From Squalus acanthias (lineage: Eukaryota), in assembly GCA_030390025.1 (NCBI GenBank), contig CM059431.1, forward strand, positions 97,776,001 to 97,840,000: DNA of 64,000 nucleotides, written 5' to 3'. Below, piece after piece: positions 3,590-63,200 of the stretch. The stretch's first letter is position 1. Each line of letters opens with the position of its first letter. The notes under the pieces were generated by a model. The model did not search any database, was not told where the DNA came from, and saw only the letters and a program-made list of their open reading frames with translations. A program made the translations under genes and the position numbers.

Positions 3590-3880
3590 CAATCATCATC
3601 AGTCCAAAAATGTGTGGGTTAGGTTGATTTGGCTATGATAAATTGACCCTTAGTGTTAGGGGGGGATTAAATATGTGGGGTTATGGGGATAGGATGGGAT
3701 ATGTTAGGGGAATTAAATACGTGGGGTTACAGGGGTAGGGTGGGATATGTGTACTGTGGGGATTAAAGCAGGGACAGGGTACTGGATTTGGATGATCAGC
3801 CATGATCGTATTGAATGGTGGAGCAGGCTCGACGGGCCGAATGGCCTACTCCTGCTCCTAGATTCTATGTTTCTATGTTT
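3590..3880 (+). mobile_element. HE1-like V-SINE fragment followed by a CR1-type 3' tail
   Basis: gggttaggttgatttggctatgataaattgacccttagtg resembles the shark V-SINE body; ends in gggccgaatggcct...(ttctatg)n. Confidence 0.6.
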
Positions 3881-6230: not shown

Positions 6231-7007
6231 TTCAATTCCAGTGCCACTTGTTGCTTTTACTGACGGCCATGGATTTCAAACTAGGCAGAGTCAAATGTTC
6301 TAACCGTGCAGGAACTGTTTTAATCCGCTCGTGCTGGAAAATTAGAAATCAAAATCGAAAGTAAGTGCTGATAATTACTGTCCGCAGAAAGGTGTGGGAG
6401 GAATAGCCATAGCTGTCTGCAGCACCTGAACTTTTACAGTCACATTTTAGAGTTTTTATTCTCTAATGGATTCTTGTTTTCTTCAAAACCTTGTTTTCTC
6501 ATCGAGCGTTCTATCTTGGAGAGTTTTTAAACCCTCTGACAGCCGAGATACTCTAGCCGGTGCTTATGAGCATTGGGTCTGCCCTGGTATGTTGTACTGA
6601 GGACACAAGCTTCGTATCCTCCGCACGGAGTGTAGATCATGGCTTTGTACAATGGTGTAGAATGGGCAACAGCGAATTGGCAGCCCCCCTTTACATATCT
6701 CCTCATTTTTATTTCCATTGCCGATTCGCTATCACCCGGTTCACACTATCGCACAAAGTCAAAATCTACCCCGGGGAGTTCAACCGTTATTTTTTATTTA
6801 AAAAAACGCTTGCTGCACTTTTAAATTCAGAGCTAATAGAACAGGTCTTGCCATGTGCAATTGTAAACTTTTTTAAATGGGGGATTGATGTAATCTGGTC
6901 CAATTTTGTGTTGTTTCCAGCTCCAGTACCTGTAATATTGAAATACACACCCTGCGCTTCTGTCGTGTAGGCAGGACATAAGAGAGGGCAGTAATTTATT
7001 GTACAAT

Positions 7008-7926
7008 AATGAGAAGTCGCACAACACCAGGTTATAGTCCAACAGTTTTATTTGAAATCACAAGCTTTCGGAGCTTACGTGGCCCCTTCCTCAGGTGAAG
7101 TAAAGAAATACAGAATCGACAAAGCATATATAGATAGAGAACAATGCATGTGTAACTTACAATGGCAGACGACTAAATTTAATCATCCTGACTGTTTATC
7201 TGCCGAGGTGTGACAAAAGGCAATCAGGTCAGCCAGGAAGGTACCACATCAAAGACATAGCAAGATACAACTGAGACAATGAGGTGGAGTTACAGGGGGT
7301 CTAATGTGTCAAAAGCTGCAGTCGGTATGTAAAACGATAAACTTTAAAATTTTTACTTTTTTACTGGGAATCACATCTGTGAACAAGCCAACGACGACTC
7401 GAGTCTGGATCACATCATGTATCGTGACATAAACCCAAGATCCCGGTTGAGGCCGTCCTCATGAGTGCGGAACTTGGCTATCAGTTTCTGCTCGATGATT
7501 TTGCGTTGTCGTGTGTTTCTAAGGCCGCCTTGGAGAACGCTTACCCGCAGATCCGAGGCTGAATGTCCTTGACTGCTGAAGTGTTCCCCGACTGGGAGGG
7601 AACACTCCTGCCTGGTGATTGTTGCGCGGTGTCCGTTCATACGTTGTCTCAGTGTCTGCATGGTCTCGCCGATGTACCATGCCGCGGTGCATTCTTTCCT
7701 GCAACGTATGAGGTAGACAACGTTGGCCGAGTCACATGAGTATGTACCATGTACCTGGTGGGTAGTGTCCTCACGTGTGATGAAGGTATCTGTGTTGATG
7801 ATCTGGCATGTCTTGCAGAGGTTGCCGTGGCAGGGTTGTGTGGTGTCGTGGTTGCTGTTATCCTGAAAGCTGGGTAATTTGCTGCGAACGATGGTACTTC
7901 TGAGGTTAGGCGGCTGTTTGAAGGCA
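7008..7926 (-). mobile_element. 5'-truncated Penelope-like element: GIY-YIG endonuclease, 3' region and hammerhead; 12-bp TSD
   Basis: ORF 7410-7943 reads C..C...NVVYLIRC...WYIGET...LRQRMNGHR...VGEHF...GLN; TTATTGTACAAT at 6996-7007 and 7927-7938. Confidence 0.92.
7058..7098 (-). ncRNA. Minimal type I hammerhead ribozyme motif (PLE family A)
   Basis: UCAC-CUGAGGA-A-GGGGC-cacguaa-GCUCC-GAAA-GC-UU-GUGA: conserved core, stem II, stem I UCAC/GUGA, palindromic AAGCUU stem III. Confidence 0.75.
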
Positions 7927-11627: not shown

Positions 11628-11678
11628 GTTAGCATGGCTCGTGTTTCTTGTTGAATCTTACCTTGACATAAGAACATA

Positions 11679-11812
11679 AATGTGAGAAGTCGCACAACAC
11701 CAGGTTATAGTCCAACAGCTTTATTTGAAATCACAAGCTTTCGGAGCGCTGCTCCTTCGTCAGCTGAAGTGAAGAATTTGTCCACCCCAGTCCAACACCG
11801 GCATCTCCACAT
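11679..11812 (-). mobile_element. Short PLE family A insert with hammerhead motif (11731-11767)
   Basis: Near-identical to 7010-7100; flanked by cataagaacata at 11667-11678 and 11813-11824. Confidence 0.8.
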
Positions 11813-11814
11813 CA

Positions 11815-12365
11815 TAAGAACATAGAATTAGGAGCAGGAGTCGGCCGTATGGCCCCTCGAGCCTGCTCCGCCATTCAATAAGATCATGGCTGATCATCTA
11901 CCTCAACTCCACTTTCCTGCCCTATCCCCATACCCCTTGATTCCTTAGAGTCCAAAAATCTATCGATCTCAGCCTTGAATATACTCAACGACTCCACATC
12001 CACAGCCCTCTGAGGTAGAGAATTCCAAAGATTCACCACCCTCTTGAGTGAAGAAATTTCTCCTCATCTTAGTCCTAAATGGCTGACCCCTTATTCTGAG
12101 ACTGTGACCCCTAGTTCCAGACTCTCCAGCCAGGGGAAACCGCTTCTAAGCCCTCTAAGAATTTTATATGTTTCAATGAGATCACCTCTCATTATTCTAA
12201 ACTCCAGAGAGTATAGGCCTAGTCTACTCGATCTCTCCTCATAGGACAATCCCCCCATCCCAGGAATTAGTCTGGTGAACCTTCGTTGCACTCCCTCTAA
12301 GGCAAGTATATTCTTCCTTGGGTACGGAGACCAAAACTGGACACAGTACTCCAGGTGTGGTCTCG
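11815..12365 (-). mobile_element. CR1 LINE 3' fragment
   Basis: [14 protein letters not shown]...RGDLIETYKIL. Confidence 0.92.
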
Positions 12366-16119: not shown

Positions 16120-16537
16120 TATTAAGGACATGGTAACAGGGCACTTAGAAAATAATAAGAGGATTGGGCAGAGTCAACATGGATTTATGAAAGGGAAATC
16201 ATGTTTGACAAATCTATTAGAATTTTTTGCGGTTGTAACTAGCAGAATCGATAAGGGGGAACCAGTGGATGTGGTGTATTTGGATTTTCAGAAGGCAGTC
16301 GTTAAGGTGCCACACGAGGTTATTAAACAAAATTAAGACACATGGGATTGGGGGTAATATACTAGCATGGATTGAGGATTGGTTAACGGACAGAAAACAG
16401 AGAGTAGGAATAAACGGGTCATTTTCGGGTTGGCAGGCTGTAACTAATGGGGTACCACAAGGATCAGTGTTTGGGCCTCAGCTATTCACAATCTACATCA
16501 ATGATTTGGATGAGGGGACCAAATGTAATATATCCAA

Positions 16538-16670
16538 TACGATAGCAAAATACTGCGGATGCTGGAAATCCGAAATAACAACAGAAAACGCTGGAAAAAC
16601 TCAGCAGGCCAGGCAGCATCCGTGGAGAGAGAAAGAGAGTTAACGTTTCAGGTCGATGACCTTTCATCAG
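16538..16670 (-). mobile_element. Short PLE family B insert (133 bp) starting at a hammerhead core; 11-bp TSD
   Basis: AATATATCCAA at 16527-16537 and 16671-16681; minus strand CTGATGA-A-AGGTC-atc-GACCT-GAAA-CG-TT-AAC; matches the 3' end of the PLE at 22676-23829. Confidence 0.85.
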
Positions 16671-17988
16671 AATATATCCAAGTTTGCTGATGATACAAAG
16701 CTGGGTGGATATGTAAGTTGTGAGGAGGATGCAATGAGTCTTCAAGGATATATAGACAGGCTAAGTGAGTGGGCAAGAACATGGCAAATGGAATATAATG
16801 TGGAGAAATGTGAAGTTACCCACTTTGGTAGGAAAAATAGAAAAGCAGAGTATTTTTTAAATGGTGAGAGATTGGGAAATGGTGTTCAGAGGGACCTGGG
16901 TGTCCTTGTACATGGATCACTGAAAGTACAGCAAGCAATTAGGAAAGCAAATGGTATGTTGGCCTTTATTACAAGAGGATTTGAGTATAAGAGTAAAGAC
17001 GTCTTACTGCAATTATATCGGGCCCTGGTGAGACCACACCTGGAGTATTGTGTACAGTTTTGGTCTCCTTACCTAAGGAAGGATATACTTGCCATAGAGG
17101 GAGTGCAACGAAGGTTCACCAGACTGGTTCCTGGGAACGGGGGGGATTGTCCTATGAGGAGAGATTGAGTAGACTGGGCCTATATTCTCTAGAGTTTAGA
17201 AGAATGAGAGGTGATCTTATTGAAACATACAAAATTCTTACAGGACTTGACAGGGTAGATGCAGGGAGGATGTTTCCCCTGGCTGGGGAGTCTAGAACCA
17301 GGGGTCACAGTCTCGGAATAAGGGGTCGGCCATTTAGGACTAAGATGAGGAGAAATTTCTTCACTCAGAGGGTGGTGAATCTTTGGAATTCTCTACCCCA
17401 GAGGGCTGTGGCGGCTCAGTCGTTGAGTATATTCAAGACAGAGATCGATAGATTTTTGGACACTAAGGGAATCGAGGGATATGGGGATAGTGCAGGAAAG
17501 TGGAGTTGAGGCAGAAGATCAGCCATGATCTTATTGAATGGCGGAGCAGGCTCGAATGGCCTACTCCTGCTCCCTATTTCTTATGTTAATATAATAAATG
17601 TTGACTGCACTTGTAGAATCACCCTGAGGGTCCCAGCAGTGATAAAGTACACAAAAATTCCCAAAGCTCAGGGCATCATTGTGTAAAATAAATTCTGTGA
17701 TCTCAGGCGATAGTTACTGCTCGGGTCTTTAATAGCTGTTCCGACAGTCAGTATTGTATAATAACAGGGAGTTTTGCTGCTGAGAACTGGCAAATGTGCT
17801 CTGTTCTTCCTCCACTGGAAGGAAGGAATAAATGCGGAAAGACTGAACAGGCTGGGGCTCTTTTCTCTAGAAAAGAGAAGGCTGAGGGCTGGCCCAATAG
17901 AAGTCTTTAAAATTATGAAAGGGTTTGATAGGGTAGATGTAGAGAAGATGTTTCCACTTAGGGAGACCAGAACTAGAGGCCAAAAATA

Positions 17989-22675: not shown

Positions 22676-23829
22676 TTTTTTCCTCAACCGAGGATTCCCC
22701 TCCACCGTGGTTGACACGGCCCTCAACCGTGTCCGTTCTATTTCCCGTACTTCTGCTCTCGCCCCTTCCCCTCCCTCCAAGAACCTTTCACCCCACCAGC
22801 CTCCACATTCAACGGATCATTTTCCGCCACCTCCAGCGTGATCCCACCACCAAAGACATCTTCCCCTCCCCTTTCAGCATTCTGAAGGGACCGCTCCCTC
22901 CGCGACACCCTGGTCCACTCCGCTCTCACCCCCAACACCCCTTCACCTTCCCACAGCACCTTCCCATGCAAGCGCAGGAGATGCTACACCTGCCCTTTTA
23001 CCTCCTCCCTTCCCACTGTCCAGGGCCCCAAACACTCCTTCCAGGTGAAACAGCGATTTACTTTTACGTCTTGCAATTTAGTATACTGTATTCGCTGCTC
23101 ATGATGCGGTCTTCTCTTCATTGGGGAGACCAAACTCAGATTGGGTGACCACTTTGCGGAACACCTCCGTTCAGTCCGTAAGCGTGACCCCGAGCTTCCG
23201 GTCGCCTGTCATTTTAATTCTCCGCTCCACTCCCACTCTGAGCTCTCTGTCCTCGGCCTCTTACACTGTTCCAATGAAGCTCAACGTAAGCTCAAGGAGC
23301 AGCACCTCATCTTTCGATTAGGCACTTTACAGCCTTCTGGACTCAACATAGATTTCAACAATTTCAGACTATAACCTTGGCCCCTATTTTTCTTTTCTTA
23401 TTTTTTCTTTTTTTTTCTCACATGGCAGCTGTTGATGTTTCTGCCATTGCCATTTACACCTCATCTGGAGTCATCTTTTGTTTCGAAAAATAGGAGCAGA
23501 AGTAGGTCATTCGGCCCTTCGAGCCTGCTCCGCCATTCAATATGATCATGGCCGATCTTAACTTGTCCAATTGCCATCTCCTTTTGCCTTGCACCATCAT
23601 CCCTTTTGTCTTTTAATCTCTCCTGCCTTCCACCCTATCACACACCTTCCCTTTTGTTCTTTCCTCCCCACCTCCCTTTCCCTGCCCCTACACTTGCTTA
23701 AAAATCTATTACATCTCTAACTTTTTCCAGTTCTGACAAAGGGTCATCAACCTGAAACGTTAACTCTGTTTCTCTCTCTCTACAGATGCTGCCTGACCTG
23801 CTGAGTATTTCCAGCATTTTCTGTTCTTA
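22676..23829 (+). mobile_element. 5'-truncated Penelope-like element (family B) with GIY-YIG remnant, inserted in an L2 fragment
   Basis: IGETKLRLGDHFAEHL...VACHFNS...EQHLIFRLGTLQPSGLN; TSD ctccRtaaacttc at 22663-22675 and 23830-23842; degenerate hammerhead (CTGACAA) at 23729-23765. Confidence 0.88.
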
Positions 23830-24659
23830 CTCCATAAACTTCACCTCATCCAAAACTCTGCTGCCCGTATCTTATGCCGCACCAAGTCCCGTTCGCCCAT
23901 CAACCCTGTGCTCGCTGACCTACATTTACTCCCGATCCCCAATTGCCTCAAATATAAAATTCTCATCCTTTTGATTTAGTACCCTTGATCACCTCCTCTT
24001 CCCTATCTCTCACATCCTCCAGCCCTGCATTCCCTCCGTCTCCCCTCTTCCCCCCCACTGCCCCCCCCCCCCCCCCCCCCCCCAAACTCTTTTTTTTGTT
24101 TCCTGCCTCTTGTGCATTCCCCACCCCTTTCGCCGAACCATTAGCGTCTATGTGATCAGCTGCCTCGGGATTCCCTGAGCGCCTCTGTCGTGTTCTCCCG
24201 CTGACAGCATTCTACGCACATCAGGACACCTGGCTGACCAAACAAACATTGGGGTTTGGGTCTTGGTGCCTGTTACATGGCATATCACACGTTTAGATGA
24301 AAAAAAAATTTTTTAATTATTGAGTTAAGAATCCTGATTAGGGCTTATCTCGCCTCCTGTGATGGCACCTTACAATGGGTCATGATGGTGAGGGGCATTG
24401 TTGGTGCCATCACAGTGAGGGGCATACGGGTCCATGCATTACGGGGAAAGTGTTTGTATGTCAATCTTTTGGGTTAAGGTGATGCACTTGCCAAGGGCTC
24501 TGGTTGGTATTTGCCTCTCTGAGACATGTATTGATTGTGCCAACAACCCTTCCATGTCAAAGGGACAGAGCCATAGAATAAACCTTGGGTTTGGCCTTGC
24601 TAGTGGAAGGGGAAGCGTGGTCCACATGCCCCCTGGTCATCGGGATATGCCTCTGCTCA

Positions 24660-42609: not shown

Positions 42610-43150
42610 AATGACAAAAGGGTTAAATTATGAGGACAGGTTGCACAGACTAGGCCTGTATTCCCTCGAGTATAGAAGATTAAGGGGTGATCTGATCGAG
42701 GTGTTTAAGATGATTAAAGGATTTGATGGGGTCGAGAGAGAGAAACTATTTCCTCTGGTGGGGGGAGTCCAGAACAAGGGGGCACAACCTTAAAATTAGA
42801 GCTAGGCCGTTCAGGGGTGATGTCAGGAAGCACTTCTTCACTCAAAGGGTAATGGAAATCTGGAAAACTCTCCCCAAAAAAGCTGTTGAGGCTGGGAGTC
42901 AACTGAAAATTTCAAAACTGAGATGGATAGATTTTTATTGGTTAAGGGTATTTTTTACCTGACGAAGGAGCAGCGCTCCGAAAGCTCGTGATTTCAAATA
43001 AAACTGTTGGACTATAACCTGGTGTTGTGCGACTTCTCAAGGGTATTAAGGGTTAAGGAACCAAAGCGAGTAGACGGAGTTAAGATACAGATCAGCCATG
43101 ATCTAATTGAAAGGCGGAACAGGATCGAGGGGCCTGTCCCTATGTTCTAA
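42610..43150 (+). mobile_element. CR1 3' fragment with a nested PLE insert
   Basis: YEDRLHRLGLYSLEYRRLRGDLIEVFK. Confidence 0.9.
42953..43038 (+). ncRNA. 86-bp PLE family A insert consisting of a minimal hammerhead (42955-42991) plus tail; 9-bp TSD
   Basis: TTAC-CTGACGA-A-GGAGC-agc-GCTCC-GAAA-GC-TC-GTGA; AAGGGTATT at 42944-42952 and 43039-43047. Confidence 0.8.
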
Positions 43151-43351: not shown

Positions 43352-44830
43352 CACAATGCACAATAATACACAATGCAAATAATACACAATGTACTATAAT
43401 ACACAATGCAAATAATACACAATGTACTATAATACACAATGCAAATAATACACAATGTACTATAATACACAATGCAAATTATACACAATGCACTATAATA
43501 CACAATGCAAATAATACACAATGCACTATAATACACAATGCAAATTATACACAATGCACTATAATACACAATGCACTATAATACACAATGCAAATAATAC
43601 ACAATGCACTATAATACACAATGCACTATAATACACAATGCAAATAATACACAATGCACTATAATACACAATGCAAATAATACACAATGTACTATAATAC
43701 ACAATGCAAATAATACACAATGCACTATAATAGTGCAAATTATACACAATGCACTATAATACACAATGCAAATAATACACAATGCGCTATAATACACAAT
43801 GCAAATTATACACAATGCACTATAATACACAATGCAAATAATACACACTACTATAATACACAATGCAAATAATACACAATGTACAGGAAACTTTCGTTTA
43901 TCCGGCACCCAAATATCCGGAATTCTCGCTTAACCGGCAAAAATCATCCTCCGAAAACTCCTCTCAAATAACCGGCAATGTTGCCGAGTCGCAGTCGAGT
44001 CTCCGCGAACGCCGAGTGCTCCGAAAAATCCTCTCAAATAACCGGCAATGTTGCCGATCCCGAGTCCGAGTCCGAGAACGCCGATTTAGTCAGATGGGGT
44101 ACTTTTCAAAAGTGCCACTACTCGGCCTCCTGGCGCAAGTCCGAAACATTGCAGTAGCAGGAGTAGATTCTCCTGTGCTGCTTGGAGTCTCTTTGTTAAA
44201 AATAGACTCGGTAGATATAACTCTCTGTTATCCGGTACTTTCGATAAACCGGCACCCCGTCGATGCCGGATAAACGAAAGTTTCCTGTACTATAATACAC
44301 AATGCAAATAATACACAATGCACTATAATACACAATGCAAATAATACACAATGCACTATAATACACAATGCAAATAATACACAATGTACTATAATACACA
44401 ATGCACTATAATACACAATGCAAATAATACACAATGCACAATAATACACAATGTACTATAATACACAATGCAAATTATACACAATGCACTATAATACACA
44501 ATGCAAATAATACACAATGCACTATAATACACAATGCACTATAATACACAATGTACTATAATACACAATGCAAATAATACACAATGCACTATAATACACA
44601 GTGCAAATTATACACAATGCACTATAATACACAATGCAAATAATACACAATGTACTATAATACACAATGCAAATTATACACAATGCAAATTATACACAAT
44701 GCACTATAATACACAATGCACTATAATACACAATGCAAATAATACACACTACTATAATACACAATGCAAATAATACACAATGTACTATAATACACAATGC
44801 AAATAATACACAATGCACTATAATACACAA
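43352..44830. repeat. AT-rich minisatellite of alternating 16/17-bp subunits (aatacacaatgcaaat / aatacacaatgcactat)
   Basis: Direct reading; interrupted by a MITE. Confidence 0.95.
43884..44287. mobile_element. pogo/Tigger-like MITE, copy 2 (404 bp, perfect 24-bp TIR, TA TSD), opposite orientation to copy 1
   Basis: TA|CAGGAAACTTTCGTTTATCCGGCA ... TGCCGGATAAACGAAAGTTTCCTG|TA. Confidence 0.92.
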
Positions 44831-52555: not shown

Positions 52556-53139
52556 AACAAAAATGATTCTTGATGTATTCAACAAGTTGTGAAAAGTTTT
52601 GAAGATTAATAATTTGCATCTATATAAAGTAACAGCTCATCACATCTCAGACTGTCTCTCAATTTACCCGCTGGCTGCATTTCAAGATCCTGCAACCAGC
52701 AATGACCGGTTAATCTGTTTCTGATGGTGGAGGGAGGAGAGGGAGGGAGGGTGAGTGGGGAGAGGGAGGAGGGGAAGGGTGAGTGGGGAGGAGAGGGAAG
52801 ATGGTGGGGAGCCTGGGCTCAGACACCAGGAGAACTTCCCCCTCTTAAAAAAAATACCATCCTGTGGGATGCACTGACCTTTGCACCTGGTTTCCCCAAA
52901 TATGCACCGTGTGCAAAATTCCACGACGAGTGCAAGTTCGCAGAGAGAGAGAAAATAAACTTTTTTGTGTTTTAAGCAGTTTAAAGATATATTGAGCTGT
53001 AGCTGTGTTTGGGATGAAGTAACTAATTGTGCCATATTTTGGTCACATTCTAAAGCGATGCACTGACTGCCCCCACAGCATGTGCGTCTGATCATTCCTT
53101 ACTCATGATGCCACTGTGTAGTTTGCCAGGTGATAATCA

Positions 53140-53236
53140 TTCTGATGGAAGATCATCGACCTGAAACGTTAACTGTTTCTCTCCCCACAGATGCTGCCTG
53201 ACCTGCTGAGTGTTTTCAGCATTTTCTGTTTATATT
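53140..53236 (+). mobile_element. Short PLE family B fragment with degenerate hammerhead (CTGATGG core)
   Basis: Colinear with 23731-23829. Confidence 0.75.
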
Positions 53237-53254
53237 GCTGGGCGATACTAGATT

Positions 53255-60225: not shown

Positions 60226-63200
60226 AGTAAATATTCACACTCCCGGGGACCCCCCTGTAAATATTCACACTCCAGGGGACCCCCCTGTAAATATTCACAC
60301 TCCCGGGACCCCCCTGTAAATATTCACACTCCAGGGGACCCCCCTGTAAATATTCACACTCCCGGGACCCCCCTGTAAATATTCACACTCCAGGGGACCC
60401 CCCTGTAAATATTCACACTCCCGGGACCCCCCTGTAAATATTCACACTCCCGGAGACCCCCCTGTAAATATTCACACTCCCGGAGACCCCCCTGTAAATA
60501 TTCACACTCCCGGGGACCCCCCCTGTAAATATTCACACTCCCGGAGACCCCCCCTGTAAATATTCACACTCCCGGGGACCCCCTGTAAATATTCACACAC
60601 TCCCGGAGGACCCCCTGTAAATATTCACACTCCACGGGACCCCCCTGTAAATATTCACACTCCAGGGGACCCCCCTGTAAATATTCACACTCCCGGAGAC
60701 CCCCCTGTAAATATTCACACTCCCGGAGACCCCCCTGTAAATATTCACACTCCCGGAGACCCCCCTGTAAATATTCACACTCCCGGGGACCCCCCTGTAA
60801 ATATTCACACTCCCGGAGACCCCCCCTGTAAATATTCACACTCCCGGGGACTCCCTGTAAATATTCACACACTCCCGGAGACCCCCCTGTAAATATTCAC
60901 ACTCCACGGGACCCCCCTGTAAATATTCACACTCCCGGGGACCCCCTGTAAATATTCACTCCCGGGGACCCCCTGTAAATATTCACACACTCCCGGGGAC
61001 CCCCCTGTAAATATTCACACTCCACGGGACCCCCCTGTAAATATTCACACTCCCGGGGACCCCCTGTAAATATTCACTCCCGGGGACCCCCTGTAAATAT
61101 TCACACACTCCCGGGGACCCCCTGTAAATATTCACACACTCCCGGAGACCCCCCTGTAAATATTCACACTCCCGGAGACCCCCTGTAAATATTCACACAC
61201 TCCCGGGGACCCCTTGTAAATATTCACACACTCCCGGGGACCCCCTGTGAATATTCACACACTCCCGGAGACCCCCCTGTAAATATTCACACTCCCGGAG
61301 ACCCCCCTGTAAATATTCACACTCCCGGAGACCCCCCTGTAAATATTCACACTCCACGGGACCCCCCTGTAAATATTCACACTCCCGGGGACCCCCTGTA
61401 AATATTCACTCCCGGGGACCCCCTGTAAATATTCACACACTCCCGGGGACCCCCTGTAAATATTCACACACTCCCGGAGACCCCCCTGTAAATATTCACA
61501 CTCCCGGAGACCCCCTGTAAATATTCACACACTCCCGGGGACCCCTTGTAAATATTCACACACTCCCGGGGACCCCCTGTGAATATTCACACACTCCCGG
61601 AGACCCCCCTGTAAATATTCACACTCCCGGAGACCCCCCTGTAAATATTCACACTCCCGGAGACCCCCCTGTAAATATTCACACTCCAGGGGACCCCCCT
61701 GTAAATATTCACACTCCCGGAGACCCCCCTGTAAATATTCAAACTCCACGGGACCCCCCTGTAAATATTCACACACTCCCGGGGACCCCCTGTAAATATT
61801 CACACTCCCGGGGACCCCCCTGTAAATATTCACACTCCCGGAGACCCCCCTGTAAATATTCACACTCCACGGGACCCCCCTGTAAATATTCACACACATT
61901 CCCGGGGACCCCCTGTAAATATTCACACTCCCGGGGACCCCCTGTAAATATTCACTCCCGGGGACCCCCTGTAAATATTCACACACTCCCGGGGACCCCC
62001 TGTAAATATTCACACACTCCCGGGGACCCCCTGTAAATATTCACACTCCCGGAGACCCCCTGTAAATATTCACACTCCCGGGGACCCCCTGTAAATATTC
62101 ACACACTCCCGGGGACCCCCTGTAAATATTCACACACTCCCGGGAACCCCCTGTAAATATTCACACACTGCCGGGGACCCCCTGTAAATATTCACACACT
62201 GCCGGGGACCCCCTGTAAATATTCACACTCCCGGGGACCCCCTGTGAATATTCACACACTCCCGGAGACCCCCTGTAAATATTCACACACTGCCGGGGAC
62301 CCCCTGTAAATATTCACACTCCCGGGGACCCCCTGTGAATATTCACACACACCCGGGGCCCCCTGTAAATATTCACACACTCCCGGGGACCCCCAGTAAA
62401 TATTCACACACTCCCGGAGACCCCCTGTAAATATTCACACACTCCCGGAGACCCCCAGTACATATTCACACACTCCCGGAGACCCCCCTGTAAATATTTA
62501 CACACTCCCGGGGACCCCCTGTAAATATTCACACACTCCCGGAGACCCCCCTGTAAATATTCACACACTCCCGGAGACCCCCCTGTAAATATTCACACAC
62601 TCCCAGGGACCCCCTGTAAATATTCACACTCCCCGGGACCCCCTGTAAATATTCACACACTCCCGGGACCCCCTGTAAATATTCACACACTCCCGGGACC
62701 CCCTGTAAATATTCACACACTCCCGGGACCCCCTGTAAATATTCACACACTCCCGGAGACCCCCTGTAAATATTCACACACTCCCGGAGACCCCCTGTAA
62801 ATATTCACACACTCCCGGGGACCCCCTGTAAATATTCACACACTCCCGGAGACCCCCTGTAAATATTCACACACTCCCGGGGACCCCCCCTGTAAATATT
62901 CACACAGTCCCGGAGACCCCCTGTAAATATTCACACACTCCCGGAGACCCCCCTGTAAATATTCACACTCCCGGAGACCCCCCTGTAAATATTCACACAC
63001 TCCCGGAGACCCCCTGTAAATATTCACACACTCCCGGGGACCCCCTGTAAATATTCACACTCCCGGGGACCCCCTGTAAATTTTCACACTCCCGGAGACC
63101 CCCTGTAAATATTCACACACTCCCGGAGACCCCCTGTAAATATTCACACACTCCCGGAGACCCCCTGTAAATATTCACAGACTCCCGGGGACCCACTGTA

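Follow-up and report, generated by a model that had tools for sequence, protein, structure and literature searches.

We have found that six short motifs in a stretch of 64,000 nucleotides (nt) from the shark Squalus acanthias (assembly GCA_030390025.1, contig CM059431.1, positions 97,776,001 to 97,840,000 of the forward strand; referred to below as the window) are very probably minimal type I hammerhead ribozymes (min-HHRs), situated in the 3' ends, derived from pseudo-long terminal repeats (pseudo-LTRs), of dead, 5'-truncated insertions of two families of Penelope-like retroelements (PLEs) that we call A and B. A preliminary description, made from the sequence alone, had proposed the motifs, their minimal type I layout and their carriers; direct reading of the sites bore out all six positions, and the complete layout could be read in the motifs. 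The hammerheads of PLEs are of type I, have no stable helix III and are thought to act as dimers through a palindrome; their activity in vitro is low, and the roles proposed for them are the processing of tandem transcripts and possibly the formation of circular RNA (PMC4209133; review PMC6765202). On the model offered by this literature, two hammerheads in a tandem transcript of a master copy would pair through the palindrome of helix III (AGCU in family A, ACGU in family B), and each of the paired hammerheads would cut 3' of the U or C at position 17, freeing unit-length RNA. Nothing points to a present function at the six sites in the window: two of the hammerheads are intact in sequence, and the damage to the other four and the position of all six in 5'-truncated insertions tell against any such function there.

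Read 5' to 3' on the RNA strand, the family A hammerhead consists of the 5' strand of stem I, the core box CUGA(G/C)GA, an unpaired A, GG(G/A)GC, a loop (3 or 7 nt in the window copies), GCUCC, the second core box GAAA, GCU(U/C) and GUGA, and the family B hammerhead of AGUU, CUGAYGA, A, AGGUC, AUC, GACCU, GAAA, CGUU and AACU. Two family A motifs have lost no feature: that at 7058..7098 on the minus strand pairs UCAC with GUGA, carries the loop CACGUAA and has its predicted cut between 7062 and 7061, and that at 42955-42991 on the plus strand pairs UUAC with GUGA by means of a U-G wobble and has GCUC preceding the cut site. The third (11767-11731, minus strand) keeps its core and stem II, and the closing pair of stem I adjacent to the core is broken (UCAG against GUGA). 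In family B, the motif at 16670-16638 (minus strand) also keeps its core and stem II; its insertion begins at the CUGA box, with two stem I pairs left. The other two family B motifs, both on the plus strand, do have the core mutations that had been ascribed to them: the one at 23729-23765 reads CUGACAA (G8 to A) and has one stem II mismatch, and the one at 53140-53175 reads CUGAUGG (A9 to G), with one stem II mismatch and two stem I pairs. With these two exceptions, the boxes CUGANGA and GAAA are exact in all of the window motifs (four of six).

The same features recur in copies sampled independently of the hammerhead. We anchored the sample on the terminal region of each family and not on the motif, taking the first 30 places per anchor together with the window copies, to give 33 copies per family; 31 could be parsed in family A (L039 and L047 were dropped as truncated) and 27 in family B (L057, L060, L066, L067, L069 and L074 were dropped as truncated or deleted). 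In family A the core and the GAAA box are each exact in 30 of the 31 copies, stem II is fully paired in 30, stem I has at least three contiguous pairs in 28, the G10.1-C11.1 pair is present in all 31 and every feature is intact in 27; eleven loop variants, of 3-8 nt, sit atop one conserved stem. The corresponding figures for the 27 copies of family B are 19 for an exact core, 25 for an exact GAAA box, 22 for a fully paired stem II and 14 for every feature intact, and five of the eight core mutants read CUGACAA, the expected product of CpG decay of CUGACGA. The palindrome of helix III is AGCU in 31 of 31 copies of family A and of the ACGU type in 25 of 27 copies of family B. At position 17 family A has U in 25 copies and C in 6, and across the 58 parsed copies of the two families this base is always U or C and never G. 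An extra A after A9 had been noted in the preliminary description, which turned to a viroid for precedent; the base is present throughout (31 of 31 in family A and 27 of 27 in family B) and the precedent is unneeded, since an extra base is already listed as a hallmark of PLE min-HHRs (PMC4209133).

Covariation across copies, the check that had been proposed for this structure, is found in helices I and II and in the helix III palindrome. Within family A, 96.0% of cells pair, as against 28-50% when the partners are slid, and stem I pair 6-45 occurs as CG (13), UA (7) and UG (3), the sole compensatory pair in this family. A combined MAFFT alignment shifted the 3' half of family B by one column; family A was aligned alone instead, and for the comparison between families the eight family A copies (out of 31) whose loop is 3 nt long were placed in an ungapped alignment alongside the full set of 27 from family B. 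In this ungapped alignment 94.5% of cells pair, against 15-43% with partners slid; eight of the eleven pairs differ on both sides between the families, involving 59 cells; the covariation score reaches 0.489, compared with 0.090 or less after sliding; and the centre of the helix III palindrome is GC in family A and CG in family B. We note that the structure was derived from the very sequences on which covariation was tested, and that RNAcofold, applied to two copies, returned mostly trivial strand-swapped duplexes that are uninformative on helix III.

The motifs also occur far more often than controls would predict. A strict descriptor (core, zero or one extra base, stem II of 4-8 base pairs (bp), GAAA, palindromic helix III, UH and at least three stem I pairs) matches the window twice, at the two intact copies, and matches none of 200 dinucleotide-preserving shuffles; a looser descriptor without stems I and III matches the window four times. 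We then counted patterns throughout the assembly of 3.71 gigabases (Gb), each with a reversed control, the family A motif pattern comprising the core, the extra A, stem II, GAAA and the first helix III bases. This pattern is found 34,146 times on the forward and 33,917 times on the reverse strand (68,063 in all), and that of family B 12,738 and 12,910 times (25,648). A 24-mer from the terminal region of family A is found 49,232 and 49,326 times (98,558) and a 26-mer from that of family B 27,469 and 27,552 times (55,021), and the reversed control of each of the four patterns gave 0.

The elements that carry the motifs are indeed two distinct Penelope-like families, as had been suggested: open reading frames (ORFs) for a reverse transcriptase (RT) with a C-terminal GIY-YIG nuclease lie upstream of the motifs, and amino-acid identity between the families is 31-41%. 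At one family A locus, L021, one minus-strand and two plus-strand motifs lie close together, and an ORF of 872 amino acids runs between the plus-strand hammerheads at 3595-3627 and 6731-6763. This ORF matches RVT_1 (37.9 bits, E 2e-9) and, at its C-terminus, Pfam GIY-YIG (23.0 bits, cut-off 22.6); the window copy at 7544..7925 (20.3 bits) and the family B copy L018 (21.1 bits) score below that cut-off. The ORF protein, P0001, has a DKG motif ('PADKGG'), known as an RT motif of PLEs (PMC8557442), a C-x4-C-x2-C linker and two cysteines between its GIY-like and YIG motifs. The two cysteines, seen in both families, are the Cys half of a CCHH motif, and family B shows both the linker and the two-cysteine nuclease pattern in L018 and in the window remnant at 22862-23185. 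An RT domain profile match was obtained for family A, and the RT similarity of family B was detected by tblastn only (34-41% identity to family A, L016); a search of PDB sequences with the ORF returned only generic reverse transcriptases, at E 0.45 and 0.98. A CX2-5CxxC linker between the RT and the endonuclease is present in Neptune and Nematis and absent from Penelope and Poseidon (PMC8557442), and the CX4CxxC linker of both shark families makes them like Neptune/Nematis-type PLEs and unlike Poseidon, a likeness of linker motif rather than a phylogenetic placement.

The full-length family A unit has one hammerhead about 90 nt ahead of the ATG of its ORF and a second about 465 nt beyond the stop codon. 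At L021 the ATG lies about 90 nt past the cut site, at the end of a 'tail' of about 40 nt that is carried by the right arm only; the full-length arm begins 17 nt ahead of CUGA, the left side is an inverted copy truncated at residue 96, and the whole unit is bounded by a 12-bp target duplication. The full-length template RNA of L021 carried two hammerheads, one at its extreme 5' end and one near its 3' end. Insertions end about 60 nt past the cut site, or about 90 nt past it when the tail is present, a point that corresponds to the ATG in the full-length unit. Fold-back units are frequent and have a truncated arm in inverted orientation, a target duplication and a tail confined to one of the two arms; the tail was on exactly one arm in nine of nine anchored pairs, and 31 head-to-head pairs were counted by hand among the first 100 family A anchor places listed. 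Pseudo-LTRs, an inverted truncated arm, a one-sided tail of 30-40 bp and a variable target duplication make up the architecture of PLEs (PMC8557442), and we assign the shark elements to the PLEs, of the canonical type with a C-terminal endonuclease (EN+), because an ORF with RT and GIY-YIG, a hammerhead at either end, the presence of an inverted arm, a tail on one side and a target duplication are published signatures of this group (PMC8557442; PMC11167929; PMC4209133). We note that summed contig word depth along L021 (3400-7000) rises from about 200 at the 5' part of the ORF to 51,000-69,000 (X1, X3) at the hammerhead and terminal region, roughly 250-fold, in keeping with a population made up mostly of 3' fragments; the depth was taken from contigs (X1, X3 and X18), and the rise bears on neither expression nor cleavage.

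Within the window, the hammerhead at 7058..7098 belongs to a 5'-truncated family A copy of 927 bp (7000..7926, minus strand) that comprises the nuclease C-terminus, the 3' untranslated region, the hammerhead and the terminal region, is 92.5% identical to L021 by blastn over 951 columns and has a target duplication of 11-12 bp, TTGTACAATAA. The ORF remnant in this copy (7544..7925, minus strand) retains the CX4CxxC linker and a GIY-YIG core with two cysteines between GIY and YIG, and matches residues 746-872 of P0001 in tblastn at 96% (residues 746-848) and 87%. A short family A copy of 96 bp (11678..11773, minus strand), made up of hammerhead and terminal region, forms a fold-back unit with an inverted arm that is the PLE tail of about 40 nt alone (11777..11815, plus strand; blastn 97% to the L021 tail), the unit being flanked by an 11-bp target duplication, ATGTTCTTATG, at 11667-11677 and 11813-11823. 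The second short family A copy, of 86 bp (42953..43038, plus strand), begins 6 nt ahead of CUGA, contains an intact hammerhead and is flanked by a 9-bp target duplication, AAGGGTATT, at 42944-42952 and 43039-43047. Family B is represented by a 133-bp short copy with a tail, beginning at the CUGA box (16538..16670, minus strand; 11-bp target duplication TTGGATATATT at 16671-16681 and 16527-16537), by a 5'-truncated copy of about 1 kilobase (kb) at 22838..23831 (plus strand) and by a short copy of about 100 bp at 53139..53240 (plus strand), the latter two with mutated hammerheads. The 1-kb copy includes a nuclease remnant (22862-23185, plus strand) with two in-frame stops and 32% identity to residues 741-851 of P0001 in tblastn. 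Target duplications of 9-12 bp accompany four of the six window copies.

We also note that the family B insertion at 16527-16681 (minus strand) and one at L060 (G000:C1:794809-797834) lie at the same position in two copies of another, older repeat; they are of different subfamilies and have different 5' ends, and their target duplications are near-identical (TTGGATATATT and TAGATATATT), which hints at a preferred target site. In the terminal region of family A (7004-7045 in the window, minus strand), GTTGGACT and GGTGTTG are complementary to AGTCCAACACC in the optional tail (for example at 3645-3722 of L021), and judging from these sequences the two reverse-transcription start regions of family A could form base pairs with one another. 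The 86-bp family A copy is inserted in another repeat (flanks 42900-42952 and 43039-43080, plus strand) whose frame ends in an FKTEMDRFL-like peptide. We take this peptide to resemble the C-terminus of the ORF2 proteins of long interspersed nuclear elements.

Several points weigh against the reading of the motifs as cleaving hammerheads. At 10.1-11.1 family B has A-U in 18, G-U in 9 and G-C in none of 27 copies, and the G10.1-C11.1 pair is highly conserved in PLE and canonical hammerheads (PMC4209133); an alternative register for family B, in which two A's would be unpaired, the stem would shrink to 4 bp and a U would bulge out ahead of G12, seems less likely. Within the families there is little covariation, family A having one compensatory pair, and the contrast between the families amounts effectively to one between two lineages. 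The Rfam hammerhead models (types I, II and III, HH9 and HH10) gave zero matches in the window at the gathering score, and zero at E<=10 in the whole window or in 7030-7130 (101 bases) alone; the catalytic core boxes are common to the Rfam families and the shark motifs, and the models, none of which the shark motifs match at the thresholds tried, presuppose a real helix III. Published min-HHRs cleave poorly in vitro, dimers included (PMC4209133), and, in the available part of the study of the PLE of Anolis, its hammerhead cut only with protein present and was dispensable for insertion in vitro, with no RNA-seq ends at the cut site (PMC11167929). Lastly, hardly any sampled copy has its hammerhead separated from the 3' terminal region, and by-eye reading of the sequences found one of 73 family B copies (L089) and one of 33 family A copies (L047) that start at or near the cut site. 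The template RNAs were therefore uncut or rejoined, and cleaved RNA appears rarely to have served as template.

The alternative that draws most on these points is that the motif is kept for a role other than cleavage, as a 5' leader or dimerisation site, a protein recognition site or part of the pseudo-LTR promoter, cleavage being weak or incidental. A role of this kind would fit the uncleaved insertion templates of almost all sampled copies, the low published activity (in Anolis protein-dependent and dispensable in vitro, according to the part of that account available), the family B motifs that do without G10.1-C11.1, and the clustering of 5' ends at the 5' edge of the motif, which, taken with the position of the first base of the full-length L021 arm 17 nt ahead of CUGA, suggests an RNA headed by the motif. 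We nevertheless think it unlikely, because a mere hairpin or dimer site would need none of the elements CUGANGA, GAAA, U16.1 and a base other than G at 17, all of which are identical across families with 31-41% protein identity, base 17 being never G in the 58 parsed copies. The PLEs of plants, fungi and protists, moreover, carry canonical hammerheads, and the tested fungal one is active (PMC4209133).

It is less probable again, and in our judgement distinctly improbable, that the copies of about 90-135 bp represent a separate non-autonomous element, akin to a short interspersed nuclear element or a retrozyme, with its own start just before the hammerhead and mobilised in trans by the PLE protein. 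Short and long copies have their terminal sequence, tail and fold-back architecture in common, and they are linked by intermediate lengths, such as the window copies of 927 bp and about 1 kb; the matches listed include arms of 0.1-2.7 kb. The abundance of matches to the terminal-region anchors (98,558 for family A and 55,021 for family B) and the many copies that start within a few nt of the motif do speak for a separate element, but ordinary PLEs in which transcription began within the 3' pseudo-LTR would yield the same short copies. A 2026 preprint, as far as its available part goes, derives animal non-LTR retrozymes from PLE pseudo-LTRs (10.64898/2026.07.22.740005); retrozymes, however, are tandem, and neither the window nor the places listed showed short units arrayed head to tail. 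That the likeness to hammerheads is a chance resemblance within a repeat, for which the lack of an Rfam hammerhead match could be cited, is scarcely credible given that no shuffle out of 200 matches, that the same eleven-pair layout and core occur at the same element position in two divergent families with compensatory changes, and that every published min-HHR hallmark is matched with one exception in family B.

The 5' ends of the copies raise the further question of where the element RNA starts. We placed the 5' ends of 73 anchored family B copies (the 33 described above and 40 more) by gapped extension against 23 hand-picked long copies, having set aside ungapped extension and blastn among copies, both of which were confounded by fold-back partners and shared flanks. 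Relative to CUGA, 36 ends lie beyond -65, 4 at -17 to -65, 18 at -16 to +2, 12 inside the motif and 3 in the 16-nt spacer, such that a zone of 19 nt at the 5' edge of the motif, out of 110 nt in all, holds 18 of the 37 truncated ends (binomial P ~1e-5, with bins picked post hoc); four ends at -17 to -32 are over-extended by eye. The copies in the study of this cluster include those at window 16670 and 53140, L058, L068, L072, L079, L087, L088, L097, L098, L111-L115 and L123, among others. Family A shows a weaker cluster (n=33), with 9 ends at -16 to +2, 8 at -17 to -65, 2 downstream and 14 beyond -65. Blocking of the RT by the folded motif was considered as a cause of the cluster and rejected, as the enzyme meets the 3' side of the motif first and the ends lie at its 5' edge.

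The clustering of copy 5' ends at helix I, and a full-length L021 arm whose first base lies 17 nt ahead of CUGA, lead us to raise tentatively the possibility, which we regard as more doubtful than not, that the start of the element RNA coincides with helix I or precedes it by a few bases and that all element transcripts, and those of solo or 3' pseudo-LTRs, carry a hammerhead 5' leader. An RNA start at helix I would be the most economical account of the cluster. The bases at the start of helix I suggest an initiator. Upstream of helix I in family B (23709-23732 in the window, plus strand, and in copies generally) we observe CTAAC, a pyrimidine run and CAG, an arrangement that resembles both a branch point with its 3' splice site and an initiator (CCAGTTC). 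An 8-nt upstream consensus, present in 17,130 of 44,359 family B cores, is confounded by subfamily differences and was not used as evidence. In Penelope of D. virilis, transcription starts in the pseudo-LTR upstream of the hammerhead, and an intron ends exactly at helix I (PMC4209133).

As a class the shark motifs are known, since, at the level of sequence, all of their features except the 10.1-11.1 pair of family B match published hallmarks of PLE min-HHRs. With the min-HHRs of metazoan PLEs (Cervera and de la Pena 2014, PMC4209133) they have in common a helix III reduced to a palindrome, the UH cut site, the extra base, a location in PLE terminal repeats, mostly as solitary motifs from truncated copies, opposite-strand pairs 100-700 bp apart and consensus families within a genome. 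They differ in number, the 93,711 pattern matches in the shark being some ten times the approximately 9,000 in Xenopus that are the largest figure in that paper, in the A-U or G-U that replaces G10.1-C11.1 in family B, and in a helix II of 5 bp as opposed to 7-8 bp in the families of Schistosoma (PMC4209133). Poseidon PAc of Anolis carolinensis, so far as the available part of its description extends (PMC11167929), resembles the shark elements in having a hammerhead by the start of the ORF, an optional tail of 30-40 bp, which there marks two adjacent reverse-transcription start sites, and a mainly uncleaved template; its ORF starts within the hammerhead, in stem II, whereas the shark ATG lies about 90 nt past the cut site. 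Animal non-LTR retrozymes, including the Schistosoma repeats of the Sm-alpha type (PMC7229834; 10.64898/2026.07.22.740005), are, in the available parts of these sources, likewise of type I with a weak helix III, short, non-coding and linked to PLEs, but they form head-to-tail arrays and circular RNAs and have canonical loop contacts, whereas the shark copies are dispersed, fold-back or solitary and their hammerhead is minimal. The six window copies are dispersed, close neighbours among the first 100 places listed are on opposite strands, and the one same-strand pair examined (at L021) is 3.1 kb apart and flanks the ORF. The hammerhead of chrysanthemum chlorotic mottle viroid, reportedly described by De la Pena and Flores in 2001, is said to carry an extra core nucleotide in a canonical type III ribozyme with full helices and loop-loop contacts; unlike the shark motifs, it is neither a retroelement motif nor minimal.

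We found no description of shark PLE min-HHRs in the literature searched, and the main text of the survey of metazoan PLEs names no shark or cartilaginous host (PMC4209133); the 2026 preprint, in its available part, sampled one chondrichthyan, for retrozymes, and its supplements may bear on the shark case (10.64898/2026.07.22.740005). New here are the A-U and G-U pairs at 10.1-11.1 in family B and the clustering of copy 5' ends at the hammerhead.

Two further features of the window are unrelated to these elements. A tandem AT-rich array at 43420-44830 (minus strand) gives weak matches to the mir-4703 and mir-471 models (E 0.6-7, far under the gathering score) and is most likely a satellite, not a set of microRNA genes. 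At 60270-60437 (minus strand) a G-rich tandem repeat, built of units such as GGGGGTCCCGGGAGTGTGAATATTTACAG, matches a bacterial small RNA model no better than chance would (E 0.71).

The results add a further vertebrate genome to the hosts of PLE min-HHRs and show these at very high copy number, near-intact motifs being matched at least 93,711 times over 3.7 Gb, and they have a consequence for annotation, in that the Rfam models wholly miss these motifs. They also provide a large natural sample in which nearly all insertions were made from RNA that was not cut at the hammerhead, or was rejoined, and in which one abundant family, B, manages without the G10.1-C11.1 pair; neither the uncut templates nor the family B pair alters the established picture. 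If the RNA does start at helix I, the most frequent templates would be short RNAs of about 100-135 nt headed by the hammerhead, and this would account for the abundance of short copies. Cutting would then remove the leader and any cap from the coding RNA, and the ribozyme would serve as a switch between template and message, not as a processor of unit-length RNA.

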